Assembly (NCBI GenBank): GCA_041662205.1
Contig: JBAZSZ010000001.1
Location: 159,107 to 223,106, forward strand
Source of the DNA: Minisyncoccota bacterium
GTDB lineage: Bacteria > Patescibacteriota > Minisyncoccia > Phycocordibacterales > UBA9973
Direction: 5' to 3'
Length of the DNA: 64,000 bases
A program made the position numbers and the translations under genes. Below the pieces are notes generated by a model. That model was not told where the DNA came from. It did no database searches and saw only the letters and a program-made list of their open reading frames with translations. Below are positions 49,282 through 62,003 of this stretch, piece after piece. Every line of letters starts with the position of its first letter. The first letter of the stretch is position 1.

Positions 49282-49290
49282 CTTACTCTG

Positions 49291-49374
49291 TGCCCAGGGA
49301 GAGAATCGAACTCTCATGATGTTGCCATCAATAGATTTTGAGTCTATCGCGTCTACCAATTCCGCCACCTGGGC
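49291..49374 (-). tRNA. tRNA-Leu (anticodon CAA), type II with a long variable arm
   Basis: Acceptor GCCCAGG/CCTGGGC, anticodon loop CTCAAAA, variable hairpin TGATGGCAACATCA, T-arm GAGAG-TTCGATT-CTCTC. 84 nt. Confidence 0.85.
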
Positions 49375-49447
49375 AATGTTCACATTCTACATAAAAAACA
49401 TAGTAAAATCAATTGTTTTAAATAAAATTTTTATGTTAAAATAAAAC

Positions 49448-50464
49448 ATGTCTAATTTATATTCCAATTCAATTTTCTGGATTGATACCGATAAAATAAA
49501 ACCAAATCCTTTTCAGCCAAGGCGGGATTTTGATGAAGCTCGCTTGGCTGATTTAGCAGAATCCATAAAACAATACGGTGTTCTCCAGCCTCTTATAGTT
49601 TCTCGAGTAGAATTAGAAAAGGAAGGCGGTGATGGATTAGTGACTGAATATGAATTAATAGCAGGGGAACGAAGGCTCCGAGCTGCCAAGATCGCAATGG
49701 TGTCGCAAGTGCCAGCAGTAATTCGTACTGGAGATACGGCTTTGATGAAGCTAGAGCTTGCTATTATCGAAAATTTGCAACGTGAGGATCTAAATGTCAT
49801 TGATAGGGCTCGAGCTTTTTTTCGTTTGGTTACTGAATTTAAATTTACTCACAATGAAGTTGCAAAAAAAATGGGCAGAAGTAGGGAATATGTTTCAAAT
49901 TCTTTGCGTATTTTGACTTTACCAGAAGAAATTTTGAATGGTTTATCTGAGGGTAAAATTTCCGAAGGACACACTAGGCCGATTTTGATGCTCGCAGATC
50001 ATCCTCAGGAACAATTAGTTTTATTTAAAGAAATTGTCTACAAAAAAATCACAGTGCGTGAAGCAGAAAGGTTAGCGAGAAAAATAGCTTATGATCGAGT
50101 CCGTAAGAAAGAATTTATGCCGGATCCTGAAATCACTGAGCTAGAAGAAGAATTTCAAGAGAAATTAGGTACTCGTGTTCATATCGATAGAAAAGAACTA
50201 GGCGGACAAATTAAAATTGACTTTTTTTCCACTGAAGATTTGCGGACGATTTTAGACTTGATTAAAAAAGGAGAAGTCGAAAAAAAGCCAGGTGAAATGT
50301 TGGAGAATCATATAGCAAACGAAGAGAACACATCGTCCATAACGCAAGAACCTAGTGTCTTAAATGATGAGAGTATACCACTAGACGATAGAAATAAAGA
50401 AGAAATAGAAAAAGCTAACGAAAGTGATGCTGATTTATATAATATTTCCAATTTTAGCGTCTAA
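49448..50464 (+). CDS. parB: Chromosome partitioning protein ParB/Spo0J
   Basis: ParB box GERRLRAAKIA, an HTH and an acidic C-terminal tail. No parA in the window. Confidence 0.85.
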   Translation: MSNLYSNSIFWIDTDKIKPNPFQPRRDFDEARLADLAESIKQYGVLQPLIVSRVELEKEGGDGLVTEYELIAGERRLRAAKIAMVSQVPAVIRTGDTALMKLELAIIENLQREDLNVIDRARAFFRLVTEFKFTHNEVAKKMGRSREYVSNSLRILTLPEEILNGLSEGKISEGHTRPILMLADHPQEQLVLFKEIVYKKITVREAERLARKIAYDRVRKKEFMPDPEITELEEEFQEKLGTRVHIDRKELGGQIKIDFFSTEDLRTILDLIKKGEVEKKPGEMLENHIANEENTSSITQEPSVLNDESIPLDDRNKEEIEKANESDADLYNISNFSV

Positions 50465-51965: not shown

Positions 51966-54212
51966 TTAGTCTTCAATTTTCTTTATTTTGTCTGGGCGAA
52001 AGTTTGGGCAATCTTTTTTACTACATCTCTCTGGAATAGTTTTTGTGCCTTCCATCATTAGACTCCCACATTCTTTACAGATATTGCCGGTCGGTTTTGC
52101 TTTGATGGCAAATTTACAATCTGGATAATTTGAGCAAGAATAAAAAATTCCAAATCGTCCACGTCGCTCGGAGATATCTCCTTTTTTACAAACTGGGCAA
52201 ATTACCCCAGTGCGTTTTTTTGCTTCTTCTGCTTCATCTTTTTTTATAAATTTACATTTAGGATAGCGTGAACAAGAAATAAAAGTTCCAGTGCCATCGC
52301 GTCTTTGTCGTACCACGAGCTTGCCTCCACCTGACTTGCCTTTTTTTTCTCCACACTCTGGACACATTTCACCAGTTTCCTCAGGGCCTTTTAATTCTGT
52401 GCCATCGAGCATTAAAGCTCCTTCACAATCAGGATATTTTGAACAGGAATAAAATTTTCCCCCGCGAGAAAGCTTGATAATCATAGAGCTATCACATTTT
52501 GGACATTTTATATTTTTTGGCGCCTCGCCCAGATTTGTCGCTTTTTCTAATTTTTCTTTTGATTTTACATCTTTTGAGAACGGGATATAAAAATCCTTTA
52601 ATGTTTTTTCATATTCTCGCTCGCCTCTTGATATTTCATCTAATTCATTTTCCATCTCGGCGGTAAAGGTATCAGAAATATAATTAGCAAAATGTTTTTC
52701 TAAGAAGTCTGATACTACCTCGCCTACATCTGTGGGGAATAATGTTTTTCCTTCTTTCTTTACGTACCCTCTGTCTTCGATTGTTCTCATGATAGATGCA
52801 TAAGTTGAGGGTCTGCCGATGCCTCTTCCTTCCAGCTCTTTAATTAGTCCTGCCTCAGAATATCTGCCTGGAGGTTCTGTAAATTTTTCTTCTCCATTTA
52901 ATTCAAGTAATTTTAATTTTTCTCCCATTACGCAAAGTGGAAGTTCCACATCCTCACCTCGGGCGCCAGTATCTACCGCAAGCCAACCAGGGAAAAGTAA
53001 ACGGGAGCCGGTGGCTGTGAAGTCAGGTAATTCGGACGTTGGACGTCCAGAAACCGGACGTCCAACGTCCGAATTTATATTTGCAGTAACTTTTGTTTTA
53101 AGTAATTTTGCATCTGTCATTTGTGATGATACAGCGCGTTCCCAGATGAGACGATACAATCTGCTCTGATCATCATTCCCAGCGTGAAGGTTTTCTACAT
53201 GAGTCGGGCGGATAGCCTCGTGTGCTTCCTGGGCATTTTTTGATTTTGTTTTATAGATTTTAGTTTCTGCATAATTATTTCCATATTCTTTTTTTACAAA
53301 AGATATGATTTGGGCTTGAGCGGCACTAGAAAGGTTTGTACTATCTGTTCGCATATAAGTAATATGTCCAGCTTCATAAAGTTTTTGTGCTATTTGCATC
53401 GTGCGTGAAGGAGAGTATCCGAGTCGGGAACTAGCTGTCTGTTGAAGGGTAGAAGTAGTAAAAGGCGCACGTGAAGAACGTTTTTGTTCAGTTTCTTTTA
53501 CTCCTTTTATTATCCAAGCGCCTTTTTTGCCTTCAGTCATTATTTTTTCAAATAATTTCTCGTCTCGTGGCTCCTCAGAGCAGGTGAGTGTAATTTTCTC
53601 TTTTTTTTGCGTCTCGAACAATCCAAATATTTTCCAAAATTTTTCAGGAATAAAAGCACGAATTTCTCGTTCTCGTTCCATTATAATACGTAGCGCGGGA
53701 GATTGAACACGGCCAGCGGAAAGTCCATATCTCACTTTTTTCCAGATAAGTCCACTTAAATCATATCCTACCAATCTATCGAGTACTCGGCGTGCCTCTT
53801 GAGCTTTGCGTAAATCTGTATCAATTTTTCTTGGATGTTTTAATGCTTCTTCCACCGCTTCTTTAGTAATTTCATGAAAAGCTACTCGTGCTATTGGCGC
53901 TTTTACTTTTTTGTCTTGATTGAGAAGTGTTTCAATATGCCAAGCAATAGCTTCTCCTTCACGGTCAGGGTCTGTCGCTAAAAGTATTTCATTTGCTTTT
54001 TCTGCAAGCCCTTGAAGTTCATGTACGATTTTTTCTTTGCCTTTTGAAATTTCATAATGCGGAATAAAACCTCCCTCGATATCGATGGCTTGTTTGTTTG
54101 ACTTAGGTAAATCACGAATGTGTCCTACTGAAGCGCGTACAGTAAATGCGCCCTCGAGGTATTTCTCGATAGTCTTCGCTTTTGATGGTGATTCGACAAT
54201 TAATAATTTCAT
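51966..54212 (-). CDS. topA: DNA topoisomerase I with multiple C-terminal zinc ribbons
   Basis: TOPRIM N-terminus (MKLLIVESPSKAKTI) and at least four Cx2C...Cx2C ribbons. Confidence 0.9.
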   Translation of the reverse strand: MKLLIVESPSKAKTIEKYLEGAFTVRASVGHIRDLPKSNKQAIDIEGGFIPHYEISKGKEKIVHELQGLAEKANEILLATDPDREGEAIAWHIETLLNQDKKVKAPIARVAFHEITKEAVEEALKHPRKIDTDLRKAQEARRVLDRLVGYDLSGLIWKKVRYGLSAGRVQSPALRIIMEREREIRAFIPEKFWKIFGLFETQKKEKITLTCSEEPRDEKLFEKIMTEGKKGAWIIKGVKETEQKRSSRAPFTTSTLQQTASSRLGYSPSRTMQIAQKLYEAGHITYMRTDSTNLSSAAQAQIISFVKKEYGNNYAETKIYKTKSKNAQEAHEAIRPTHVENLHAGNDDQSRLYRLIWERAVSSQMTDAKLLKTKVTANINSDVGRPVSGRPTSELPDFTATGSRLLFPGWLAVDTGARGEDVELPLCVMGEKLKLLELNGEEKFTEPPGRYSEAGLIKELEGRGIGRPSTYASIMRTIEDRGYVKKEGKTLFPTDVGEVVSDFLEKHFANYISDTFTAEMENELDEISRGEREYEKTLKDFYIPFSKDVKSKEKLEKATNLGEAPKNIKCPKCDSSMIIKLSRGGKFYSCSKYPDCEGALMLDGTELKGPEETGEMCPECGEKKGKSGGGKLVVRQRRDGTGTFISCSRYPKCKFIKKDEAEEAKKRTGVICPVCKKGDISERRGRFGIFYSCSNYPDCKFAIKAKPTGNICKECGSLMMEGTKTIPERCSKKDCPNFRPDKIKKIED

Positions 54213-56438: not shown

Positions 56439-57311
56439 ATGAAAAGAAATGTTTTAAATTCTCCGGGTCTTTTAGAATTAAAAAAAAGAAGAAATAAGGT
56501 TTTTCTAAATAAGACGCTCGTCTTTTTATTTGGACTTTTGTTAATTTTTTTATTTTTAGTTTTTCTTTCTCGTCTTAACAGTGTGAATATAAGTAAAGTA
56601 GATATCTTGGGTAATAAAGTTCTAGAAACAGAAATATTAACAAATGCAGTAAAAAAGCAGATAAATGGTAAATATTTATGGATTTTTCCTAAGACTAATA
56701 TTTTTATATATCCTAAAAATACTATTGAGAAAGAACTTCAGAATGAATTTAAAAGAATAAAAAATATAAATTCAGTGATTGAAAATACTAAAACTTTAGA
56801 AATATCTTTAGTTGAAAGAGAAGCGAAATATACTTGGTGTGGAGAAATGCCAGACCAAGCGATGAAACCGTTGGAAACCAGCGGTTTCATCGCTGAAGAT
56901 CGAAAGTGCTTTTTTTTAGATGAAGATGGTTATATTTTTGATGAAGCACCATATTTTTCAGGAAATATATATTTTAGGTTTTATGGTATTCAGTCTGATT
57001 TTTATTTTTCTAAAGAGAATTTTAAGAAATTTATTTCATTTAAAGATACACTTATTGGTATTGGATTAAAACCCGTTGCTTTATATGTAACAAATAATGG
57101 AGATATTCAGATATTTCTTTTAAGCGGAACTTCTTTTGAAACAGCACCAAAAATAATTCTCAAAGCTGATGCTGATTTTCAAAATGTTGCAGAGAATTTA
57201 CAGGCTGCCCTAGACACTGAACCCTTAAAATCAAAATTTAAAAATAAATATTCAACTTTAGAATATATTGATTTACGTTTTGGAAATAAAGTTTATGATA
57301 AATTCAAATAA
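56439..57311 (+). CDS. FtsQ/DivIB-like membrane protein (POTRA domain)
   Basis: N-terminal TM, POTRA-like region and a C-terminal IDLRFGNKVY pattern. Confidence 0.45.
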   Translation: MKRNVLNSPGLLELKKRRNKVFLNKTLVFLFGLLLIFLFLVFLSRLNSVNISKVDILGNKVLETEILTNAVKKQINGKYLWIFPKTNIFIYPKNTIEKELQNEFKRIKNINSVIENTKTLEISLVEREAKYTWCGEMPDQAMKPLETSGFIAEDRKCFFLDEDGYIFDEAPYFSGNIYFRFYGIQSDFYFSKENFKKFISFKDTLIGIGLKPVALYVTNNGDIQIFLLSGTSFETAPKIILKADADFQNVAENLQAALDTEPLKSKFKNKYSTLEYIDLRFGNKVYDKFK

Positions 57312-58309: not shown

Positions 58310-58357
58310 TTGACATATATACATATATTGGTAGATTGAACATAGAACGATGTTCAA
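58310..58357 (+). promoter_or_regulatory. Putative promoter (TTGACA-16-TAGATT) overlapping a perfect 8-6-8 palindrome (ttgaacat-agaacg-atgttcaa)
   Basis: Seen directly in the sequence, 28 nt upstream of the TTG start of the ParB-like gene; this geometry is typical of an operator. Confidence 0.4.
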
Positions 58358-58384
58358 TAATAACTTAAAAGGAGGTAGTAAGAA

Positions 58385-59665
58385 TTGAAAACAACAACAG
58401 TAGCATCCAGGGCTAAAGTACTGCAGTTAGAAATCTATTGTTTTTTCTTTCAAGGGAAGGTAAATGAAATCTTTTGCAAAGAGCATGGCGAGGTGTTTCA
58501 TAAAAACCTCGAATACTGCCAAAAGTACAATTGTCCGTCTCCGTGGAGGAAATGTCACAAATGCATAACTTCTGGAAATGGACACAATGGGCACAACCCT
58601 GTGGTTGATCCCATTCACGGACTTTGCAAAGATCACGTCATCTATGCCGAAGACCATTCTTTATTGAAAAGGTTACGACAGGCCTTTTCAAGCGATGCGT
58701 TACCCGAAGGTCTAAAAAGGCTCACAGTAGAACACAGGAGAGAACTTGCCAAAAGTTCAAGGGAAAGGTATCTGAAAGAAAGGATAAACTCTGACAAGAG
58801 GGTGGTTCTTGATGTTGGGGAGGTCGGTATGATAGATGTTGGTCGTATTCGTCCGAGATACGACCAGCCGAGGACGACCAGTTTTAATCTTTCTTCTATT
58901 TTTGATCTTGCTAAATCAAGAAAGAAAAGACAGGTAGCCTCGATTATCATTAGACCGATCGAGGACGATCCCGAAGGGTTTGATTTTGAGCTTATTGATG
59001 GAGAGAGAAGATACATATCTGCTCTTATCGCCAGAGTAAGCTTAATCAAGGCAGAAAGGGAGCTCGAGGAAAAGATAAGTGACAAGGACGCTTATCTAAC
59101 ATCAGCAATTGCTAACTTTTGTCATGAGGAACATTCACCCCTAGAAGCTCTAGACATGATCAAGCGTATAATGAAGGATCATAAAATAGGTGTCACAGAG
59201 GCTGCTGAGACACTTGGTAAATCAGGGTCCTGGGGTATTCAGCATGAAAGGTTGGGTAATTTGGAGATTTCTATTCGAAAAATGCTTGAGGAAGAAAAAA
59301 TCTCCATGACTACTGCGGCGGAACTCGGAAAGTATCCTAAGGAGTTCCAAGTGAAAGTTCTCGAAGACATAATTCGTGAACGGATGACTGCAGCTGCAGC
59401 CAAGATGCATATTCGTTGTGAATTGAAAAAAGAGGGATTGCCAATAAAAAGAGGAAAACGTGGTAGGCAACCAAGTGATGACTACGAAATTATGAAAGTA
59501 TTCATCAAGGGGTCAATCATAAAGGCAGATGGACTGCTTAAAATGGGCGGAGATGCTTTAAAAAGCATGTTTGCTCACAGAGACGCGAGAGACAAAGAAA
59601 TAGTTTTAGCGGAACTAGATTCACTTATCGGTAGAATCGAGGACATAAAAGAAACAATTAAATAA
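58385..59665 (+). CDS. Zinc-finger (Cys/His-rich) ParB-like nuclease-domain protein
   Basis: N-terminal C/H cluster (CKEH...CQKYNCP...CHKC...HNGHN...CKDH). Central ParB/Srx-fold motif IIIRPIEDD...LIDGERRYISA. TTG start preceded by AAGGAGGT. Visibly G/C-richer than the context. Confidence 0.55.
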   Translation: MKTTTVASRAKVLQLEIYCFFFQGKVNEIFCKEHGEVFHKNLEYCQKYNCPSPWRKCHKCITSGNGHNGHNPVVDPIHGLCKDHVIYAEDHSLLKRLRQAFSSDALPEGLKRLTVEHRRELAKSSRERYLKERINSDKRVVLDVGEVGMIDVGRIRPRYDQPRTTSFNLSSIFDLAKSRKKRQVASIIIRPIEDDPEGFDFELIDGERRYISALIARVSLIKAERELEEKISDKDAYLTSAIANFCHEEHSPLEALDMIKRIMKDHKIGVTEAAETLGKSGSWGIQHERLGNLEISIRKMLEEEKISMTTAAELGKYPKEFQVKVLEDIIRERMTAAAAKMHIRCELKKEGLPIKRGKRGRQPSDDYEIMKVFIKGSIIKADGLLKMGGDALKSMFAHRDARDKEIVLAELDSLIGRIEDIKETIK

Positions 59666-59783
59666 TTATATCAGAATCTTTTGACCACCACTGGTAAAAC
59701 AGGGGTGGTTATCTTTTTTTAGTTTAACAAAGTGTAATGAGACGTAGTGGAAAAAGACACTTTTTTTGGTATAATAAATATAG

Positions 59784-61121
59784 ATGATTAAATATTTAAA
59801 AAATCGACTGGGTATCATTTTAGTAGTTGTATTAACGGTATTTCCTCTTTTTATCTGGTATTTTATGATGCCGATTTCAAATCGATTTTTTTCAAATGGA
59901 GCAACATTTCAAAGTTTGGGACAAATCACAGGACTTTTAGGAATGGCGCTTCTCTCCATTAATTTTATATTAGGCGCTCGTTTTATATTTTTAGATAAAT
60001 TATTTAATGGGTTAAATCAAGTTTATATTAAACATCACATTATTGGAGCTATTTCTTTTTGTCTCCTGCTTTTTCATCCAGTGTTTCTAATCATTCAGTA
60101 TATTTTAATATCTTTGAGAGCTTCCTTCGATTTTATTCTAGCATTTCAAAATATTCCAGTACTTTTGGGAGAGTTCGCCTTGCTAGCCATGATTGTGCTC
60201 ATGGTCATTACTTTTTATTTTAATTTTAAATATGAAAATTGGAAAACCTCACATCAATATTTAGGTATTGTATTATTGTTGAGTGGACTTCATATGTTTT
60301 ATATACCTAGTGATGTTTCAAATAATATTATCTTGAGATATTACATGTTAGGATTATTAATTTTAGGTATTTACTCTTATCTTCATAGAACTATTTTTAG
60401 AATTTATAAAGAAGGGGAGTTTGAATATAAATTAACTGAAGTGAAAAAAATAAATGATACTATTGTCGAATTAAAATTATCTCCTTTATCAAAAAAAATT
60501 AAATTTATACCTGGGCAATTTGTTTTTTTAAGGTTTGTAGAATCTGTACAGACTGGAGGTAAAAGTATTCTTTCAGAATCTCATCCTTTTTCCATAACCT
60601 CGTCTAGCGAAGATGAAGAATTATTTTTGAGTATAAAAACATTAGGAGATTATACTTCCATGATTTATTTATTAAAACCAGGGGCTGTTTGTAGAATAGA
60701 GGGACCATTTGGGGCTTTTTCTTATCTAAAGGCAAATTCTAAAAGGCAGATCTGGATAGCTGGAGGCGTGGGGATAACACCATTTTTGAGTATGGCAAGA
60801 GAAATAAACATTACTAATATAAAAAATAATGTTTATGATATAGATTTATACTACGTAGTTAAAAATACCTCTGAGGCAGCGTTTGCAGATGAATTTATTG
60901 AGTTTTCAAAAAATAATAAGAATTTCAAATTCCACCAATATTTTTCGGATGAAAAAGGACGTATTTCAACTAGCTTTATTTCTAAAAACAGTCAGAATAT
61001 AGATAAGGCTGAAATATTTTTATGCGGACCAGTCGGTTTTATGAAAAGTTTAAGAGAGGAATTTGTAAAGTTAGGTTTTATTAATAATAAAATTCATTCA
61101 GAAGAATTTAGTATAAAATAA
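59784..61121 (+). CDS. NOX/ferric-reductase-family membrane flavocytochrome (ferric reductase TM domain fused to FAD- and NAD(P)H-binding domains)
   Basis: Six TM helices with two bis-His pairs (H..13..H, twice). HPFSITSS FAD motif, GPFG and C-terminal CGP NAD(P)H motifs. Confidence 0.7.
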   Translation: MIKYLKNRLGIILVVVLTVFPLFIWYFMMPISNRFFSNGATFQSLGQITGLLGMALLSINFILGARFIFLDKLFNGLNQVYIKHHIIGAISFCLLLFHPVFLIIQYILISLRASFDFILAFQNIPVLLGEFALLAMIVLMVITFYFNFKYENWKTSHQYLGIVLLLSGLHMFYIPSDVSNNIILRYYMLGLLILGIYSYLHRTIFRIYKEGEFEYKLTEVKKINDTIVELKLSPLSKKIKFIPGQFVFLRFVESVQTGGKSILSESHPFSITSSSEDEELFLSIKTLGDYTSMIYLLKPGAVCRIEGPFGAFSYLKANSKRQIWIAGGVGITPFLSMAREINITNIKNNVYDIDLYYVVKNTSEAAFADEFIEFSKNNKNFKFHQYFSDEKGRISTSFISKNSQNIDKAEIFLCGPVGFMKSLREEFVKLGFINNKIHSEEFSIK

Positions 61122-61130
61122 TATAAAATT

Positions 61131-62003
61131 ATGAAAAAATACATTACAATTTCGTTATTTGTTTTTTGGGTAATTGCTGTTGCAGTAGTTGTGGCAGGTT
61201 TGATTTCTTATAATAAAAATCAACCATCAACAACAGTACCAAATACTAATGGAATTAATCAAACTCCTAATATTTCTGGAATTGATTCTAAAGTCACCAC
61301 TTTAGTATTGTCTAAAGCTGAGCTAGCTAAACACAATTCTAGCCAGAACTGTTGGCTCCTTATTTCTGGTAAGATTTATGATGTTACTTCTTATATCAAT
61401 CAGCACCCTGGTGGTGCTAGCACCATAATACCTAATTGCGGTACTGATGCTACTACAGCATACGATACCAAAGGTAGACCAAATGGTAGTCCGCATTCTA
61501 GTAATGCGGAAGCCCTGTTAGCAAATTATTTTATAGGTAATCTAAATCAAACTTTACAAATTGGATCTGGTAAAAAAACTTCTACTCCAACAAATACAAA
61601 TCCTCCTACTCAAAATAAACCTTCTACTATTCCAACTACTCCGACCCCTGTGCCCAATCCGACGCTAGCTCTTACCATGACCGAATTGGCCAAACATAAT
61701 TCCCGCCAAAGCTGTTGGCTTCTTGTTTCTGGTAAAATTTACGATGTTACTGCTTATTTAAATCAACATCCTGCAGGTGCTAGTATTATTTTACCAACTT
61801 GTGGTACTGATGCCACTACGGCATATGTGACGAGGGGTGGTACTGGTACGCATTCGTCTTCTGCTAATGCACTTCTCGCTAATTATTTTATTGGTAATTT
61901 AAATCAAACAGTCAATACAACTCCAACCAATCCATCTACTCCACCTGTGGTAAATCCAAACCCAACTACTCCTCCTTCAGGAGATGATGACGATGATGAT
62001 TAA
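61131..62003 (+). CDS. Membrane-anchored secreted protein with two tandem cytochrome b5-like heme-binding domains
   Basis: N-terminal signal anchor. Two ~75-aa repeats each carry HPGG / HPAG and a downstream His. Pro/Thr-rich linkers and a poly-Asp C-terminus. Confidence 0.7.
   Translation: MKKYITISLFVFWVIAVAVVVAGLISYNKNQPSTTVPNTNGINQTPNISGIDSKVTTLVLSKAELAKHNSSQNCWLLISGKIYDVTSYINQHPGGASTIIPNCGTDATTAYDTKGRPNGSPHSSNAEALLANYFIGNLNQTLQIGSGKKTSTPTNTNPPTQNKPSTIPTTPTPVPNPTLALTMTELAKHNSRQSCWLLVSGKIYDVTAYLNQHPAGASIILPTCGTDATTAYVTRGGTGTHSSSANALLANYFIGNLNQTVNTTPTNPSTPPVVNPNPTTPPSGDDDDDD

Follow-up and report, generated by a model that had tools for sequence, protein, structure and literature searches.

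A gene for a ParB-like protein was found in a 64-kb window from a Minisyncoccota bacterium (contig JBAZSZ010000001.1, positions 159107–223106; all positions below are those of this 64,000-nt stretch). The ParB-like gene represents a new architecture within the orphan ParB class: its N-terminal domain is undescribed, and its coding sequence bears clear marks of allelic replacement. On balance its product is probably an orphan ParB-family DNA-binding protein that has no ParA partner. An earlier note on this DNA, made from the sequence alone, had described a ParB fold with an N-terminal Cys/His cluster and a helical C-terminus, and this arrangement was borne out by Pfam, by the NCBIfam model TIGR00180, by an AlphaFold2 model and by structure matches.

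The protein matched TIGR00180 (ParB/RepB/Spo0J) with 64.8 bits against a cut-off of 58.45, and such a match was used to define canonical ParB organisation, following Kaljevic et al. 2025 (PMC12704722). Pfam detected HTH_ParB (PF17762; E-value 1.9e-8, 34.8 bits against a cut-off of 22.6), and the proteins matched in the PDB by phmmer were Spo0J, Noc and ParB. The AlphaFold2 model reached a predicted local distance difference test (pLDDT) value of 80.5 with a 14-sequence alignment and 44.8 with five sequences. The structures closest to it were Noc, Spo0J and KorB (7nfu, 1vz0), with Noc the best Foldseek match, and the DNA-binding domains of Noc and KorB matched the helix-turn-helix (HTH) domain at template modelling (TM) scores of 0.72–0.82. 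A QPR triplet was located at residues 161–163 and the DGERR motif that had been reported earlier at residues 205–209 (nt 58997–59011). The latter includes the Box II P-motif GxxR, present as GERR (residues 206–209), in which G206, R208 and R209 hardly vary across the family. Box II reads GERRYIS and not GERRxRA, the third Arg being replaced in the Paceibacterota clade. The C-motif loop is RQVAS, compared with GVLQP in the canonical ParB that is also encoded in the window. Box III is degenerate, reading ANFCHE (residues 243–248) where the canonical ParB has ENLQRE, with only the Asn retained; no ENxQR was found there, and the Glu was conserved nowhere in the family alignment. The earlier description of the product as a nuclease-domain protein did not hold, as the architecture is ParB_N followed by a ParB HTH, and by structure the protein is closest to Noc, Spo0J and KorB. 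It is a ParB of the DNA-binding, NTP-switch type. The term 'nuclease domain' is merely a historical Pfam label, and nothing indicates nuclease activity.

The N-terminal domain, called Cys7His here, has the core C-x4-C-x-SPWR-x-C-x2-C ... G-x-C-x2-H. When residues 1–146 were searched exhaustively with phmmer against 1.84 billion representatives, 28 proteins were returned, among which P0121 was a spurious repeat. The cluster noted earlier was present and invariant in 29 sequences (C19, C31, N41, C45, C50, R55, C57, C60, C81 and H84). No Pfam model covered the Cys domain in any of the 29, a profile of the domain found no PDB match at E<=10, and a word-index protein search with the N-terminal 141 residues alone gave no matches. 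Elsewhere in the 29 sequences ParB_N was detected in 14, HTH_ParB in 12 and other HTH types in a few. When the 14-sequence family alignment was used as a search profile, canonical ParBs dominated the results and just one distant member was recovered. Variants were also seen that carry two tandem Cys7His domains, or Cys7His together with an HTH (ParB-type, sigma-70 region 4 or LuxR-type) and no detectable ParB_N (P0122, P0124 at L014 3436–5337, P0130, P0138, P0142–P0144 and P0146). The latter indicate that the Cys domain travels with DNA-binding modules generally. In all, it was seen solely in ParB-type or HTH proteins, encoded on Patescibacteria chromosomes and on two temperate-phage contigs.

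Seven invariant Cys and one His are enough ligands for two tetrahedral sites, and in the AlphaFold2 model the CxxC and CxxH knuckles sit before helices. The eight invariant ligands suggest two zinc sites, and the domain probably binds two Zn ions. Against this, metal binding is read from the conservation pattern, the AlphaFold2 confidence for the domain is moderate, and an Fe-S cluster would be an alternative. Cys7His lends itself well to definition as a new Pfam family, though no current concept is overturned by it.

At the other end of the protein, a family-specific module stands in place of the ParB_C dimerisation domain (PF23552), for which no match was found at E<=1. It begins with the basic motif KRGKRGRQPSDDY (residues 355–367; KRGRxPxDDY in the family), followed by MFxHRD, and is modelled as two long helices (residues 363–397 and 401–425) with pLDDT of about 90. 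A regular-expression search of the protein found no ParA-binding motif ([LFI]G[KR]G[LFI]), no parA adjoins the gene, whose neighbours are dus and a ferric reductase gene, and no parS site (TGTTNCACGTGAAACA) was found in the window with up to three mismatches. As stated in the earlier note, the canonical parB of the window lies at 49448–50464, and ParB_N, HTH_ParB and ParB_C were all detected in its product.

Four related Paceibacterota genomes carry the ParB-like gene in one and the same place, between dus and dnaX; they are represented by the window and loci L001, L002 (a Candidatus Paceibacterota metagenome-assembled genome) and L003. L010 is the same strain as L002 and does not provide an independent ortholog. 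The order topA-dprA, then serS-ftsQ-like-dus-[ParB-like gene]-(ferric reductase, cytochrome b5)-dnaX was found in all four, with the bracketed pair in the window and L002 only, so the gene is not a recent insertion. The open reading frame is richer in G/C than its surroundings, a difference pointed out earlier that proved real when computed: GC content was 0.415 compared with 0.350 for the window, and GC at third codon positions (GC3) was 0.391 compared with a mean of 0.271 (z = 2.7, rank 1 of the 50 window reading frames of at least 150 aa). The orthologs likewise have the top GC and GC3 of their own loci, so GC-richness alone is no sign of recent transfer; it is a property of the gene family rather than a mark of recent arrival. 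The horizontal origin that had been proposed is supported once it is refined. GC-richness by itself is insufficient to show it and the gene is not a fresh insertion, but the coding sequence does have a history different from that of its flanks, synonymous saturation being confined to it.

Comparison of the window with L001–L003 gave protein identities of 86–95% for topA, dprA, serS, dus and dnaX and 69–77% for the ftsQ-like, ferric reductase and cytochrome b5 genes, compared with 61% for the ParB-like protein. Nucleotide identity to L002 was about 0.8–0.9 in the flanks and 0.56–0.69 over 58350–59850. On a finer scale, the promoter, 5' untranslated region and terminator hairpin resembled the flanks (47–54 matches per 60), and there were only 27–30 matches per 60 from the start codon on. 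The Nei-Gojobori proportion of synonymous differences (pS) was 0.80–0.82 in the coding sequence of the ParB-like gene and 0.41–0.61 in the flanks. Saturation of pS is limited by composition in AT-rich genomes, so a composition-corrected test was used, which asks how far identical codons at conserved residues exceed what a random synonymous draw would give. Between the window and the other loci this excess was 0.05–0.08 for the ParB-like gene and 0.25–0.50 in eight flanking genes. Among the other three orthologs it was 0.37–0.38, similar to their flanks, and the ratio of nonsynonymous to synonymous divergence (dN/dS) was 0.10–0.13, showing that the gene is under purifying selection and functional. 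Protein selection cannot wipe out synonymous similarity, and the simplest reading is therefore that the coding sequence was replaced in place, by homologous recombination, with a far more divergent allele. For such a swap, the promoter and terminator regions, being conserved, would have been available as recombination arms. Two considerations count against replacement or blur it: a locally raised mutation rate could in principle give excess synonymous divergence, and with four orthologs the swapped allele may belong either to the window lineage or to the other three.

The divergence could also have arisen by very fast evolution in place, through relaxed or diversifying selection or local hypermutation and with no foreign allele involved, and this we consider unlikely. 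The other three orthologs are mutually 78–80% identical in amino acid sequence and so more diverged than most of their flanks, synonymous similarity in the L001–L003 pair is somewhat lower than in the flanks (0.38 compared with 0.42–0.66), and the unusual GC3 is found in all four genomes. However, selection on the protein would leave synonymous similarity in place, and it is near zero for the window allele only. The loss of synonymous signal also ends sharply at the start codon and at the terminator, and the dN/dS values among the other alleles are those of ordinary purifying selection. Local dips in identity to L002 were also seen in topA (0.63 at 52950–53099) and in the ftsQ-like gene (0.57 at 56850–56999), in flanks that are otherwise 80–90% identical, and probably reflect indels or short stretches of variable sequence.

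The family, small and uncharacterised, has members in Patescibacteria and other uncultivated bacteria, and temperate phages carry it in their replication/recombination modules. Three full-length orthologs (P0002–P0004, about 60% identity) were found among 5.8 billion proteins, and there was one match among 185,579 species genomes. Two Cys7His family members are phage-encoded, consistent with the earlier remark that such proteins occur in phages. P0129 lies between RusA and terminase genes on an IMG/VR contig that also carries an integrase gene (IMGVR_UViG_3300018083_000137), while P0141 adjoins genes for a DnaC-like ATPase, a replication protein and an integrase (IMGVR_UViG_3300045977_000226). 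A degenerate DNA pattern for C-x4-C-x-SPWR-x-C-x2-C was found in 23 viral contigs, only three of which had the real domain. P0124 contains the Cys domain twice; its source is annotated as 'Patescibacteria group bacterium', and it is found between genes for a ribosome hibernation factor and SecA. P0126, P0127, P0128, P0136 and P0145 lie among ordinary genes on short contigs with 45–65% GC. The window protein matched phrog_1033 (3.3e-10) and phage ParB-like models in BFVD (6e-11). The PHROG matches are generic ParB-like, and the likeness to phage ParB-like proteins (PHROG 1033 and 4715, 'ParB-like partition protein') covers only the ParB core, residues 147–347. In contrast to the phage genes, the copy in the window stands alone among housekeeping genes and does not belong to a prophage. 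The contig carrying P0141 also encodes a second ParB-like protein of 553 aa (L035, 8176–9837), whose boxes are canonical (GERRWRA and ENLQR) and whose C-terminal half is rich in Cys, so that two different ParB-like genes are found in one phage replication region.

The presence of family members on mobile elements and allele turnover, a hallmark of conflict genes, would favour a ParB-fold nuclease or an anti-phage defence effector, as would the use of the ParB/Srx fold by some nucleases and toxins (PMC12704722 and other literature). We consider this reading highly improbable. The Pfam scan detected no HNH or other catalytic domain, only ParB_N and HTH_ParB; the fold is followed by a full ParB HTH, and the closest structures are DNA clamps. 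PADLOC gave no match (0 families), and no defence, toxin or immunity genes were found next to the gene in the window or at the orthologous loci, where the neighbours are housekeeping genes. The defence context raised in the earlier note therefore does not apply to this locus.

A role as a second chromosome-organising ParB paralogue, Noc-like or partition-like, which would load at scattered sites for segregation or nucleoid occlusion, appears quite unlikely. In its favour, the gene lies on the chromosome in conserved synteny and is under purifying selection, the window's canonical ParB likewise has neither a ParA motif nor an adjacent parA, and the best sequence and structure matches are to Noc and ParB/Spo0J, with QPR and GERR retained. 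Noc is the best Foldseek match, and the Noc model TIGR04285 gave the top NCBIfam E-value (4.9e-19), yet at 68.7 bits this match is far below the cut-off of 315 and the protein is not Noc. Unlike Noc and ParB/Spo0J, it has no membrane-targeting N-terminal amphipathic helix, the Cys-rich domain being found in its place, and no ParA-binding motif or ParB_C, and a separate full-length canonical ParB is encoded in the window. In addition, relatives are found within phage replication modules, the gene is limited to a handful of genomes (four orthologs, counting that of the window, in the protein search described above), and allele swapping would be unusual for a core segregation factor.

Returning to an orphan DNA-binding protein, the closest known systems include the ParB-type transcription regulators KorB of plasmid RK2, VirB and BisD. 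The HTH would bind a specific DNA site, and the retained GxxR/QPR pocket would bind nucleotide, letting the protein clamp or spread on DNA. With the Glu and Arg of Box III lost, nucleotide hydrolysis would probably be slow, weak or altered. The Cys7His domain would provide a zinc-stabilised surface for an extra contact with DNA or with a partner. The protein would then act as a DNA regulator or organiser like KorB, Noc and BisD, rather than as a nuclease or a segregation adaptor. Some points weigh against this. The ParB_N match (2.5e-5) was just below the Pfam gathering threshold, nucleotide binding is predicted from motifs only, and neither sequence nor AlphaFold3 is predictive of nucleotide specificity according to the survey by Kaljevic et al. 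(PMC12704722). The gene also differs from the KorB type in having neither a KorA-like partner nor a plasmid context, in the Cys7His domain and the different C-terminal module, in the degenerate Box III, and in a candidate operator with separated, unconserved half-sites.

Orphan, mobile-element-associated proteins with the ParB-CTPase fold were surveyed by Kaljevic et al. 2025 (PMC12704722), and the window gene resembles those described there in lying outside a parAB operon, in having no ParA-binding motif, in keeping Box II while Box III diverges, and in having prophage relatives and signs of horizontal exchange. That survey catalogued fusion partners defined by Pfam, and a term search of its main text found no Cys-rich or zinc-binding N-terminal partner. 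As no Pfam model covers the Cys domain either, the Cys7His-ParB architecture appears to be undescribed there.

ParB-CTPase-fold proteins are now viewed as versatile nucleotide-gated DNA clamps that have been reused far beyond segregation, and here a 7-Cys/1-His domain precedes the clamp and a new tail replaces the dimerisation domain, an architecture invisible to Pfam-based surveys. It is common to temperate phages and to the tiny genomes of Patescibacteria, where each retained gene is likely to matter. The sharp swap of a whole coding sequence at a conserved locus is a clean natural case of homologous exchange in a little-studied phylum, and hints at pressure on the specificity of the protein to change. 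A bolder proposal, which we regard as unlikely and offer as speculation, is that the Cys7His-ParB family is a phage-derived DNA clamp, domesticated at a fixed chromosomal slot in Patescibacteria and repeatedly exchanged among lineages as whole-coding-sequence alleles, making it a specificity-switching conflict gene of the immunity or silencing type. If so, the clamp would load on phage or plasmid DNA entering the cell, or on promoters of the cell itself, Cys7His would be a second DNA reader, a partner reader or a redox sensor, and the loss of Box III would slow nucleotide switching.

The ParB-like gene has its own promoter, Shine-Dalgarno sequence and terminator (Table 1) and is a self-contained monocistronic unit. 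The -35 and -10 hexamers are both kept at all three orthologous loci, as are the Shine-Dalgarno sequence and the position of the start codon, which is GTG in the orthologs. The sequence of the terminator hairpin is kept in L002; a simple consensus terminator scan missed this hairpin because of its bulged stem. The long TTG start is backed by conservation of residues 16–93 in P0002–P0004. The public (JGI) gene call, P0001, has 333 aa, starts at residue 94 and omits the whole Cys7His domain (58385–58663), and truncated calls of this kind would hide the domain from protein-database surveys.

Table 1. Features of the ParB-like gene and its control region in the 64-kb window
Feature	Position	Strand	Details
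Sigma-70-type promoter	58310-58337	+	best promoter-like site of the region; consensus scan 10/12
-35 element TTGACA	58310-58315	+	16-nt spacer to -10
-10 element TAGATT	58332-58337	+	TG-extended
9-6-9 inverted repeat ATTGAACAT-AGAACG-ATGTTCAAT	58335-58358	none	candidate operator
Shine-Dalgarno AGGAGG	58370-58375	+	9 nt 5' of the TTG start
ParB-like coding sequence	58385-59665	+	426 aa, TTG start; coincides with the whole divergence island seen in comparison with sister genomes
Cys7His domain	58430-58654	+	aa 16-90 (75 residues); AlphaFold2 pLDDT 54-83
ParB N-terminal (NTP-binding) fold	58823-59053	+	aa 147-223
ParB-type HTH DNA-binding domain	59129-59404	+	aa 249-340; pLDDT ~90
Family-specific C-terminal module	59438-59662	+	basic motif at aa 355-367, then MFxHRD and two long helices; in place of ParB_C
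Intrinsic terminator	59682-59722	+	hairpin 59682-59711, then T-run; RNA fold -16.5 kcal/mol, z = -3.2

The coordinates given earlier, the TTGACA/TAGATT promoter and a perfect palindrome ahead of the Shine-Dalgarno sequence were all exact on re-reading. The palindrome, TTGAACAT-AGAACG-ATGTTCAA at 58336–58357, has arms that extend to 9 bp. It covers the last 2–3 nt of the -10 element as well as the site where transcription is expected to begin, and 12 nt separate it from the Shine-Dalgarno sequence downstream. As RNA it would fold at -8.5 kcal/mol (z = -4.3), but the left arm precedes the predicted start, and any role of the palindrome would therefore be played as DNA. Whether a palindrome of this kind is frequent by chance has two answers: this one was found once in the window, even with three mismatches allowed, though perfect 9-bp inverted repeats are common as a class. 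Perfect inverted repeats (arms of 9 bp or more, loop of up to 12 nt) were found at 19 loci in the window, compared with 7.3 +/- 2.3 in dinucleotide shuffles. The chance of one falling in a given 50-bp promoter is about 0.006, with an estimated 0.3 or so expected over some 50 promoters. The palindrome is thus notable where it stands but, given 19 such repeats, not statistically compelling across about 50 promoters.

The palindrome is placed so that a bound protein would block RNA polymerase, and may be an auto-operator that the ParB-like protein binds to shut off its own promoter, as KorB does at its operators. We hold this to be possible though doubtful. The repeat is perfect and unique in the window, and a repressor bound at just this place would keep RNA polymerase off. 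The gene forms a monocistronic unit between its own promoter and terminator, and KorB-type ParB proteins are structural neighbours. However, this sole candidate binding site is not maintained in the promoters of the orthologs: L001 and L003 lack the right arm, although they keep the -35, -10, Shine-Dalgarno sequence and start codon. L002 still has a degenerate version with weak 5-bp arms, AACAT-N9-ATGTT, but the 9-nt spacer differs by 3 nt and would rotate the half-sites by about 100 degrees. ParB, Noc and KorB bind contiguous palindromes of 13–16 bp. The half-sites here are 14 bp apart centre-to-centre, a separation atypical for ParB-type HTH dimers. There is also no second copy in the 64 kb, perfect 9-bp inverted repeats as a class are fairly common there, and the promoter is flank-like while the protein allele has been swapped, so site and protein did not obviously travel together. 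Of the earlier claim that the palindrome is the operator of an auto-repressed gene, the overlap with the -10 element and start stands, and the operator reading finds no support in conservation at the orthologous promoters. It is no less likely that the palindrome serves another regulator or arose by accident in this lineage.

Two other readings of the palindrome were set aside. The GAAC...GTTC within it resembles a LexA/Cheo box, but its spacing is a misfit and is not conserved. It is not a terminator for dus, as no T-run follows it and the terminator scan was negative.

Perfect repeats with 9-bp arms were also seen within the reading frame, TTGAAAAGG-N10-CCTTTTCAA at 58664–58691 and TGGTCGTAT-N9-ATACGACCA at 58840–58866, so that, with the promoter palindrome, three of the 19 window repeats of this class fall within 530 bp. 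The two were considered as internal binding sites or RNA structures and dropped, since they are conserved in none of the three orthologs. The spacer motif AGAACGAT (58344–58351) recurs 5' of distant family members, as GAACGAT at L005 610–616 and in reverse complement as ATCGTTCT at L006 712–719, and ATAGAAC recurs 5' of the family member at L007. The recurrence was noticed post hoc (rough chance estimate about 0.02) and is no more than a lead for a family-wide DNA motif.

Two further observations concern the surroundings of the ParB-like gene. Downstream of it, 59784–62003 encodes a ferric-reductase-like membrane flavoprotein and a protein with a double cytochrome-b5 domain and a poly-Asp tail. 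The pair is present in the window and L002 and absent from L001 and L003, where dnaX is directly next, and is a two-gene presence/absence difference among close relatives. The canonical parB is preceded by a tRNA-Leu(caa) gene on the minus strand (49290–49374) and a murA-like gene (region 49290–50464). Its product begins directly with ParB_N, without an LG[RK]GL motif, and no parA is adjacent, so the canonical ParB of the window may likewise be an orphan.

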